Origin: Anolis carolinensis
Taxonomy: Eukaryota
Direction: 5' to 3'
NCBI RefSeq assembly: GCF_035594765.1
Contig: NC_085843.1
Location: 243,637,971-243,701,970, forward strand
DNA: 64,000 nucleotides
In this document: in pieces, positions 25,795-27,528 of the stretch
Layout: each line of letters begins with the position of its first letter
Position numbering within the stretch: position 1 is the first letter of the stretch
Made by a program: the position numbers and the translations under genes
Notes under the pieces: generated by a model
The model's input: only the letters and a program-made list of their open reading frames with translations
Told to the model about the DNA's origin: nothing
Databases searched by the model: none

Positions 25795-25910
25795 GCAGAG
25801 GCTGGATGGCCATCTGTCGGGTGCTTTGAATACGATTTTCCTGCTTCTTGGCAGGGGGTTGGACTGGATGGCCTCAGAGGTCTCTTCCAACTCTATGATT
25901 CTATGATTCT
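25795..25910 (+). mobile_element. CR1 LINE 3' end
   Basis: GGTTGGACTGGATGGCC...TTCCAACTCTATGATTCTATGATTCT octamer tail. Confidence 0.9.
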
Positions 25911-25924
25911 CAGGAGGGATTCTT

Positions 25925-26046
25925 CATAGAATCATAGAATAGTAGAGTTGGAAGAGACCTCATGGGCCATCCAGTCCAACCCCCTGCCAAGAAGCAGGAA
26001 ATTGCATTCAAAGCACCCCTGACAGATGGCCATCCAGCCTTTGCTT
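25925..26046 (-). mobile_element. CR1 LINE 3' end (tail-to-tail with previous)
   Basis: Reverse complement of the same CR1 terminus with ATTCTATG repeats. Confidence 0.9.
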
Positions 26047-26056
26047 CTTTTAGTAC

Positions 26057-27160
26057 TGTCAAGACTTGATGTGGCAGAGGATGGAATCCCCTTTGAATCC
26101 CACCGCTGCCACCAATTTATGTAGGGAGCTGAGGTGGCAGAGAATGGGGTCCCTCTTTGAATCCCACCGCTGCCACCAAATAATGTAAGGAGCTTATGTG
26201 GCAGACTATTGGAATCCCTTTTAGAACCCCTCAGCTTTGCCACCAATATTGTACAGAGGTGAGGTGTCTGACAGGAATGTGTGTCAGAGATGGAACCCTT
26301 TTTGATCCCACACACACACACACAGATACCACCACTTAATAAAGATGTTTTATGAGAGATGATGTTAATTAATGATTTGTTGATTATCTTCTTCGCTGCC
26401 ACCAATGGAGACGTCAGGCAGATGGTACTGGTTCTTATGAGCTTTCTCTATTTGTTTTACTTCAGATGTTGATGTTACTTAACTTAATTTAGGAGTATGA
26501 CAGAGGCTTGATTTGAATAAAATCAAAACAAGTTTATTGCAGGTACAGAGCTTGATGGTTTCAGATAACTTGGTAAAGGCACTTCGCTTAATGGTTACAA
26601 ACGATTATGAGGTGGTTAAACTTTCAAAAATACTTCTTTCTCTGGATTACACTAAACCCTGATCCTACTGGATCCCCTGGGATTAATGTTCTCTAATCCA
26701 CAGACTCTACAACTGACCCTAGACAAATCACCTAACTTGCCTAGTCTGGTCTAACCTAAATCTGACTCAAATCTTTCTATTTAAGCCAGTCTGATTCTCC
26801 ACACAAGGATCAGATCCTTCTCTGTGTCTAGAGAATCACCAACTCCTAAAATAAATCCTTTTATTTTAGGCCTGACTCAAATTCTTCTGAGTCACCCTGA
26901 TTCTCTACCTGAGAATCAGTTCCTTCACTGTGGATGGAAATCACAGACTGCTGGGTTTTAAAACATTCCCCTTTCCAAGCGGCGGTTGGCTCCGCCCCTG
27001 TCGCTATGGTAACGTGTTCTAGCACTCTAAGATGGCTACCTTTCCCCATACATATCAATTCAAATACTCACCATTTTAAACTTAACCAAACCTGACTGTT
27101 TAAACAAAATCAAATACACATATCATCTATAAACAAAATACAATTATACACTTCTTCACA
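26057..27160 (-). mobile_element. solo LTR, 1104 bp, with internal tRNA-Leu PBS-like array
   Basis: TG...CA termini, perfect 5-bp TSD AGTAC (26052-26056, 27161-27165); GC box, TATA-like TTTTAAAA and AATAAA (26533-26538) in order on - strand. Confidence 0.9.
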
Positions 27161-27528
27161 AGTACATTTTAAAAGAATGTACTAAGTGTTTTCAACTTTA
27201 CAGTTTTATTTGCTTTTTATCTTTTTAAGTGTTTGATTAAATTGCTGAAATACCACATTTATTTTCATTTTCATTCTTTGTATGTTTTCAGTTGCATTGT
27301 CCTTTTTTAAACATTGTACGCTGCTTAGACTCCCACTTTTAGGAGAAAGTCGGGATGCAAATAAATATGAAATCTGGCTGGGCCTGTTCCATTATTGCTG
27401 TTAAAAGATTAAATAACTTTGCTAAAAGATTTGAAATAGCAAAGAAACATTAGATCAAAGCTCAACATTGAATCCAGTGTTACTTTGGTTTTAAGTCACT
27501 TTTTCTATTTGTGTTTATTGCCATACAG

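Follow-up and report, generated by a model that had tools for sequence, protein, structure and literature searches.

Locus and array

In the window (the whole 64,000-nt stretch of Anolis carolinensis DNA analysed here), a solo long terminal repeat (LTR) bounded by a target site duplication (TSD) lies antisense within an intron. The surrounding gene is on the plus strand and, in a scan of 121 of the 153 plus-strand frames, showed ankyrin and MYND exons; this putative host gene is compatible with ANKMY1. The features of the LTR are listed in Table 1. Its boundary is common to the family, as most of the 30 best copies start at the same base and end in CA followed by a 5-bp TSD of their own, and this places the tandem array of primer-binding sites (PBS) inside the LTR, as the initial annotation had proposed; the AATAAA motif would put the array in U5. 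A U3 direct repeat of about 110 bp, at 26762-26932 of the window, varies in copy number among LTR copies, and a very high-copy, near-perfect inverted repeat with 74-nt arms (93%) directly adjoins the LTR at 25795-26044. Rfam gave no match to the array and, near the locus, only sub-threshold miRNA-like matches on this inverted repeat; ARAGORN found no tRNA gene in the window.

Table 1. Features of the solo LTR in the window, with the basis of each assignment
Feature	Position	Strand	Description	Basis
TSD, left copy	26052..26056	+	AGTAC, 5 bp	sequence
Solo LTR	26057..27160	-	1104 bp, TG..CA (TG at 27160, CA at 26057); Gmr1-like Ty3/gypsy family	
Unit 5 (terminal)	26057..26114	-	perfect PBS, loop, arm (core 26071-26077), tail ending in the LTR's CA	sequence, predicted fold
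Unit 4	26115..26178	-	perfect 18-nt tRNA-Leu(AAG/TAG) PBS, loop, arm (core 26134-26140), CA end, 5-nt spacer	sequence, tRNA genes
Unit 3	26179..26245	-	degenerate PBS with extra-A bulge as in the gag-proximal PBS; arm core 26198-26204	copy comparison
Unit 2	26246..26334	-	PBS remnant interrupted by a TG tract; arm pairs with the tract	copy comparison, predicted fold
Unit 1 (innermost)	26335..26404	-	11-nt PBS remnant and AT-rich filler; fixed in the family	copy comparison
AATAAA	26533..26538	-	likely poly(A) signal	motif
U3 motifs	26990..27013	-	motifs that we take to be GC-box-like and X-box-like	motif
TSD, right copy	27161..27165	+	AGTAC, 5 bp	sequence

Each unit of the array is laid out as a tRNA-Leu PBS, a hairpin arm and a CA end. 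A 23-mer corresponding to the tRNA-Leu 3' end is identical at 26092-26114 and 26156-26178, and its 18-nt core, found twice in the window, is expected 0.01 times from shuffled sequences. The tandem repeat has a period of 64 and 2.9 copies, and weaker units begin on the minus strand at 26245, 26334 and 26404. The positions of the paired 23-mers, of the weaker units and of the AGTAC duplication, and the period as well, agree with the initial annotation. The genome has tRNA-Leu(AAG) and tRNA-Leu(TAG) genes whose 3' ends match the PBS exactly, also as the annotation had supposed. It had named three observations that would speak against it, namely, an array unique to this locus, an LTR boundary before the array, and a tRNA-Leu 3' end that does not match; none of these was made.

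A Gmr1-like Ty3/gypsy family

Among 1496 first-look candidates, the 40 LTR copies that were scored are 89-100% identical. One LTR copy runs on into a gag with a SCAN domain (PF02023, E-values 4e-12 and 6e-11), and 47 such junctions in the genome fit a tight pattern. The domains of one natural copy come in the order SCAN, zinc knuckle, protease (RVP, 395-482), integrase (594-946), reverse transcriptase (RT; RVT_1, 1071-1230) and RNase H (1295-1424), so that the integrase lies upstream of RT-RNase H, the arrangement by which Gmr1-like Ty3/gypsy elements are recognized. The LTRs are of the TG..CA type, a TSD and a PBS are present, and a purine run (polypurine tract, PPT) precedes the 3' LTR. Judged by domain order and content, the element is an ordinary member of the known Gmr1-like Ty3/gypsy clade. 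We rejected an endogenous retrovirus (ERV), for which the order RT-RH-IN and an env would be expected, as the integrase precedes RT and a single ORF is followed by less than 200 nt before the 3' LTR. Membership in Helenus/TRIMp3 was rejected as well, as the internal region is coding, ARAGORN detects no tRNA, and only the 3' end of a tRNA is repeated, in antisense.

Six insertions of the clade (L019, L026, L079, L080, L090 and L162) have hit, in both orientations, an identical 5-bp site within one abundant short repeat, which is presumably a squamate SINE. The first base of their TSDs avoids T and the last avoids A, and a target preference is possible.

The array is hypervariable across the family

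The exact 18-mer occurs 1953 times in the 1.85-Gb genome that we searched (867 forward, 1086 reverse), and by eye the first 30 loci of the list all fall within such LTR-end units, from several subfamilies. The array is thus family-wide, with 3-10 units per LTR. At 44 TSD-bounded ends we counted three (9 ends), four (19), five (10), six (3), and eight, nine and ten units (one each), in a tally whose solo copies were picked by their likeness to the window's LTR and which contains three rows with spurious TSD calls. The CA of the last unit, whichever that is, forms the end of the LTR. Sister subfamilies form a graded series in which L152 lacks a full unit, L151 has two and others have six or more, a pattern that stepwise growth would produce.

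Perfect 18-mers are concentrated in the outer part of the array: counted from inside, they make up 0/78, 0/78 and 9/78 of the sites at ranks 1 to 3, 44/56 at rank 4, 18/21 at rank 5 and 15/17 at ranks 6-10. The number of units varies at the U5 end with the youngest outermost, as the initial annotation had anticipated, while the progressive decay that it described is a step rather than a gradient, the inner units being fixed family-wide and the outer ones mostly perfect. The match longer than 18 nt that it noted at this locus does not hold for the family, since only 17 of the 1953 genomic 18-mers extend exactly to 23 nt. Across 86 perfect units, nt 18 is followed by 12 different pentamers, the commonest of which (34/86) has one change from the tRNA over A58-U54. 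Exact 23-nt units are terminal at all six independent loci (6/6), which is weak evidence because 57 of the 86 perfect units are terminal anyway.

The automatic division into units was wrong for some rows, and L025, L084, L085 and L162 were left out of the following statistics. Among the 41 core LTRs, the same young array is shared by one of 820 pairs. Mean divergence is 0.021 in the last PBS, 0.053 in U3 and 0.065 in the fixed U5, and reaches 0.30 at nt 19-28 and 0.24 over the final 15 nt; these two hot spots coincide with the stop of the tRNA copy and the start of minus-strand synthesis. The last unit correlates neither with the fixed U5 (rho -0.13) nor with U3 (rho -0.03); however, U3 and the fixed U5 are themselves uncorrelated (rho 0.055, p 0.17), which indicates that recombination is high in general and counts against a special mechanism. 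L002, which sits on the starred branch and is the nearest relative of the window's LTR, carries five young units where the latter has two. Neighbouring young units are the same in 5/35 cases, compared with 13/2855 between LTRs, so that simple slip-back explains a minority of the units; judging from these comparisons, tandem duplication is real, but shuffling dominates. In the LTR-body tree, 25 of the 39 inner branches are open and one row (L162) was mis-parsed; we therefore left unit-number changes on it uncounted and recomputed the distances without L162. L084 has two 5' LTRs that face each other across about 5.5 kb; their flanks nearly match, and the locus is apparently an inverted duplication.

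The gag-proximal site and putative in-array priming

The PBS outside the LTR, next to gag, is Leu-like, as the initial annotation had expected of the true PBS, but is perfect in 1/39 only, L095 being a second perfect case outside that count. Its commonest form (18/39) carries two substitutions and an extra A. In this form (e.g. L031:8743-8761), both substitutions are T-to-C changes opposite internal tRNA adenosines that yield CpG sites, and they are kept across subfamilies. A tRNA dedicated to the imperfect PBS was rejected, as none of the genome's tRNA genes matches it at two or fewer mismatches, and so was self-priming by the hairpin arm, which by eye matches the array PBS and not the bulged site.

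We compared the 5' and 3' arrays of 19 elements that have both LTRs, 97-100% alike, and an exact TSD. They match in 13/19 (L165 was scored as matching by eye) and differ in 6/19: the 3' LTR has one extra unit in L076 and L168, the 5' LTR has one in L090 and L164, and the last tail is swapped in L077 and L167. Inspected by eye, the two arrays agree in L142 and L146 too, and the 5' LTR is one unit longer in L155 and L139 (TSD outside the check). L078, L082, L085, L089, L095, L139, L142, L146, L152 and L155 stand outside the exact-TSD tally of 19. Since the two arrays of one element mostly match and those of unrelated copies do not, most of the variation predates LTR duplication.

The 3' LTR ends at the gag-proximal site in 15/19 elements, and the site stays uncorrected. 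Retroviral copying would give a perfect PBS in about half of the copies, according to the portion of the ERV study available to us (PMC7472051); the persistence of a PBS uncorrected to its primer tRNA is inheritance of the Ty3 type. Where the 5' LTR is the longer one, its 3' counterpart terminates immediately ahead of an in-array PBS. The additional unit is 6 and 9 edits from its neighbour, a difference that favours priming at the in-array site over a fresh duplication; gain from a co-packaged RNA may be an alternative source of the extra unit. The suggestion of the initial annotation that the array offers alternative priming sites thus gains structural support from the 5'/3' differences and from two 3' LTRs that end at an in-array PBS, where priming would have begun.

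Run-on tRNA copies and the origin of perfect sites

A 24-nt pattern reaching past A58 has eight matches in the genome, all right behind an LTR end or a tail-like fragment of the clade, which represent five independent events. Compared with the genomic tRNA-Leu genes, the copies run for 41/41 nt (L099), 45/46 nt (L101), 31 nt (L096), 27 nt (L100) and 25 nt (L102). Behind the tRNA copy of L100 and L102 stands a recopied last stretch of the LTR, with a TSD matching at four of five positions and, in L102, without an intact terminal CA; by anatomy they look like newborn units, and these two of the five run-on events both fall in sister subfamilies. In L096-L098 and L103 the run-on copy serves as a new PBS, the tRNA-extended LTR having become the 5' LTR joined to pol. 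These four loci belong to a gag-deleted derivative, in which the LTR leads through tRNA-Leu to the integrase region and which is present in at least four copies, two of them in tandem. Read-through of A58 is likewise described for HIV-1 RT, with a second stop at U54, in the part of the source that we could consult (PMC8599865).

Units in L003, L122, L146 and L155 are nearer to tRNA-Leu(CAG) than to tRNA-Leu(AAG) (1 vs 2, 2 vs 3 and 2 vs 5 differences), and the arms of L146 and L003 are complementary to the altered, Leu(CAG)-like site. On the other hand, the extra-A bulge of the genomic PBS recurs in unit 3 and in one unit of L119, so some units were copied from the element and not from tRNA. 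The initial annotation had held that U5 grew by capture of the PBS. Growth at the U5 end with the newest units outermost agrees with this; simple capture of the element's own PBS is unlikely for the perfect units because that PBS is imperfect.

Predicted folding

The z-scores of predicted folding are -2.8 for the window's array and -5.0 for a 5' junction. In all 28 distinct units among 222, the PBS is predicted to fold, mostly nearly whole, against the downstream arm, in line with the hairpin sequestration of each young PBS put forward in the initial annotation. In 22 elements, opening an array site (n=26) is predicted to cost 17.4 kcal/mol and opening a canonical one (n=22) 12.1 kcal/mol, whereas the predicted net binding of the tRNA is stronger in the array (-21.9 versus -18.7). 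As opening costs more and net binding is nevertheless stronger, masking would be a kinetic and not an equilibrium reason for the canonical preference; that the modelled net binding favours the array, yet the canonical site is used most, counts against the model.

Proposed origin of the array and alternatives

We hold with moderate confidence that the array is a hypervariable U5 stack made by the element's own reverse transcription, tolerated as spare priming sites and not selected as a decoy. In this scheme, each enzymatic step of which we infer from observed junctions, counts and 5'/3' differences, most insertions would be primed at the imperfect gag-side PBS, where most 3' LTRs do end, and this site would be inherited uncorrected as in Ty3. 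The first plus strand that has copied the tRNA, normally a dead end, would sometimes be kept, as in the run-on junctions; on the model of L100 and L102, it could then slip back on the U5 end and recopy it, so that the added unit would have a perfect PBS and end in a fresh CA competent for integration. Out-of-register strand transfers or template switches, probably in most cycles, would duplicate, delete and shuffle units and so produce the diversity and the 5'/3' differences that we observe. Occasionally the tRNA would prime within the array and leave a 3' LTR one unit shorter, and the predicted hairpin of each young PBS, masking it, would limit such use. The inner units would then be former primer sites and former LTR ends.

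Units could instead have arisen without tRNA templating, as duplicates of the LTR-end/PBS junction from a time when the PBS was still perfect, spread by ordinary RT template switching. The bulged, canonical-type PBS in unit 3 and L119, the perfect canonical PBS of a sister family (L138, L139), the high recombination across the LTR and the rarity of exact 23-nt continuations (17/1953) all speak for such an origin. We still consider it unlikely, as the bulged canonical PBS is common to subfamilies only 78% alike while the young units are perfect, the units are followed by a U5 tail and not by the leader, and the element itself cannot have supplied the 25-46 nt of tRNA copied at LTR ends. If, on the other hand, the changes came after integration, by host slippage, unequal crossing-over or gene conversion as in a minisatellite, the regular period of 64, the runs of identical units in L012, L016 and L162 and the single-unit losses in the 5' LTRs of L076 and L168, which could be post-integration, would be readily explained. 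But 5' and 3' arrays agree in 13/19 elements and almost never between unrelated copies, and the LTR always ends at a unit's CA followed by a TSD, which makes this origin very improbable.

Selection of the array as a decoy or sponge for 3' fragments of tRNA-Leu (Leu 3'-tRFs), or for a PBS-binding repressor, from which the imperfect gag-proximal PBS escapes, would fit the position of perfect sites upstream of an imperfect working site and the lower divergence of young PBS than of the LTR body (0.021 versus 0.053-0.065). Mismatched PBS have also been proposed to evade tRFs in mouse ERVs, in the accessible part of that report (PMC7472051). However, low PBS divergence would follow from tRNA templating too, an RNA with perfect sites in its leader would be easier to silence, and the array sites are predicted to be masked by hairpins; the inner units keep the end that pairs with CCA and lose the half with which a tRF seed would pair, and sister elements with a perfect canonical PBS carry arrays as well. 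We thus regard a selected decoy as quite improbable. A use by the host, by which the intron of the ankyrin/MYND gene would yield CCA-ending tRF mimics, as the initial annotation had envisaged, seems hardly credible: the antisense LTR would give the pre-mRNA tRNA-sense 23-mers ending in CCA, but the array is older than the insertion and common to many copies at unrelated sites in both orientations (867 forward, 1086 reverse), and no processing signal was seen at the locus.

Similar arrangements elsewhere

An unrelated LTR family of about 1 kb in the same genome (L181-L210, L228-L233) was found at 22/30 loci, with an exact 4-bp TSD in 13/22. Within the LTR, about 75 nt from the 3' end, lies a Leu(CAG) PBS that is fixed in this family, and at four 5' junctions a perfect Ser(AGA) PBS comes next, each site standing behind a CA end. 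Three of these four junctions continue with a Ser(CGA/TGA)-like site that carries two G-U-type changes and then with a decayed Ser-like site. The sampled ends stop before the Ser(AGA) site in 21/22 cases, and L229 is a solo LTR that ends one unit later, with an exact TSD. From its layout, this family seems to store sites for different tRNAs and to document a switch of primer. Three contigs of one marine metagenome assembly (L104-L106), AT-rich and probably animal DNA, also have a CA end, a 4-nt spacer and a tRNA-Leu PBS in 2-5 repeats; in L106 the inner units are decayed and the outer ones perfect, L104 has a PBS-complementary arm, and L105 is a palindromic mini-element.

It is tempting, though at present somewhat doubtful, to see here a general and undescribed ratchet of end accretion, by which LTR retrotransposons would recycle the dead-end, tRNA-extended plus strand into modules of a PBS and an integrable end. 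Such a ratchet would provide each element with a stock of primer sites, matched in one family to several tRNAs, would enable primer switching and a trade between priming and tRF silencing, and would leave a layered record of past primers in U5. The rule of one PBS outside the LTR fails for the whole clade and for the second, unrelated family in this genome. If our reading is true, the fate of the Ty3-type dead-end plus strand is revealed, as is a route for tRNA primer switching and for the gain of spare primer sites, and the family offers a natural series of 0-10 perfect and imperfect sites for the trade-off between priming and tRF silencing. Since the choice of priming site would set the length of the LTR, its annotated boundaries and PBS and the dating of LTR pairs can mislead in such families.

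Comparison with known systems

In the available portions of two accounts of Gmr1-like elements, a SCAN-bearing Gag is followed by PR, IN and RT-RH, between TG..CA LTRs with a PBS and a PPT, the same order and ends as in our family (10.1101/2025.03.03.638093; PMC8220671). Those portions make no mention of PBS arrays in the LTR, which are present here (10.1101/2025.03.03.638093; PMC8220671). A limited search of the open-access literature found no description of PBS arrays in LTRs, and a prior description is possible. Probably new relative to the known clade are the variable PBS stack in the LTR, the apparent birth intermediates and the counterpart with several tRNAs.

As far as the source text was available, the PBS of Ty3 and Ty1 is not inherited from the tRNA and the tRNA-extended first plus strand is a dead end (PMC5371799); the ERV study likewise describes their PBS as non-inherited (PMC7472051). 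Here too, an imperfect PBS persists uncorrected, at the place where most 3' LTRs end; in contrast to that dead end, the tRNA-extended strand has been integrated, transferred or slipped back, and apparently seeds repeats. Mouse ERVs resemble our family in working with a PBS that has 2-3 mismatches or indels, but as described in the part accessible they have one PBS, outside the LTR, which reverts to perfect through the tRNA copy, whereas here extra perfect sites lie in both LTRs (PMC7472051). Helenus/TRIMp3 elements, in the text at hand, are non-coding and share with our family a tRNA-related sequence inside the LTR, in their case one tRNA-like promoter segment that is not complementary to their own PBS; unlike them, the element here is autonomous and has tandem antisense copies of a tRNA 3' end (PMC10886601). 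The same text calls the mechanism by which primer type changes unknown (PMC10886601).

The growth that we propose for the array would have a functional analogy in a quite different enzyme. Telomerase uses a short part of the RNA bound to it as template for repeats at a DNA end, then realigns and extends. By analogy, an RT would here also reverse-transcribe a short piece of bound RNA at a DNA end and then realign and extend, but, unlike in telomerase, growth would be rare and irregular, the unit would be mostly recopied from DNA, and the template would be a primer tRNA and not a dedicated RNA.
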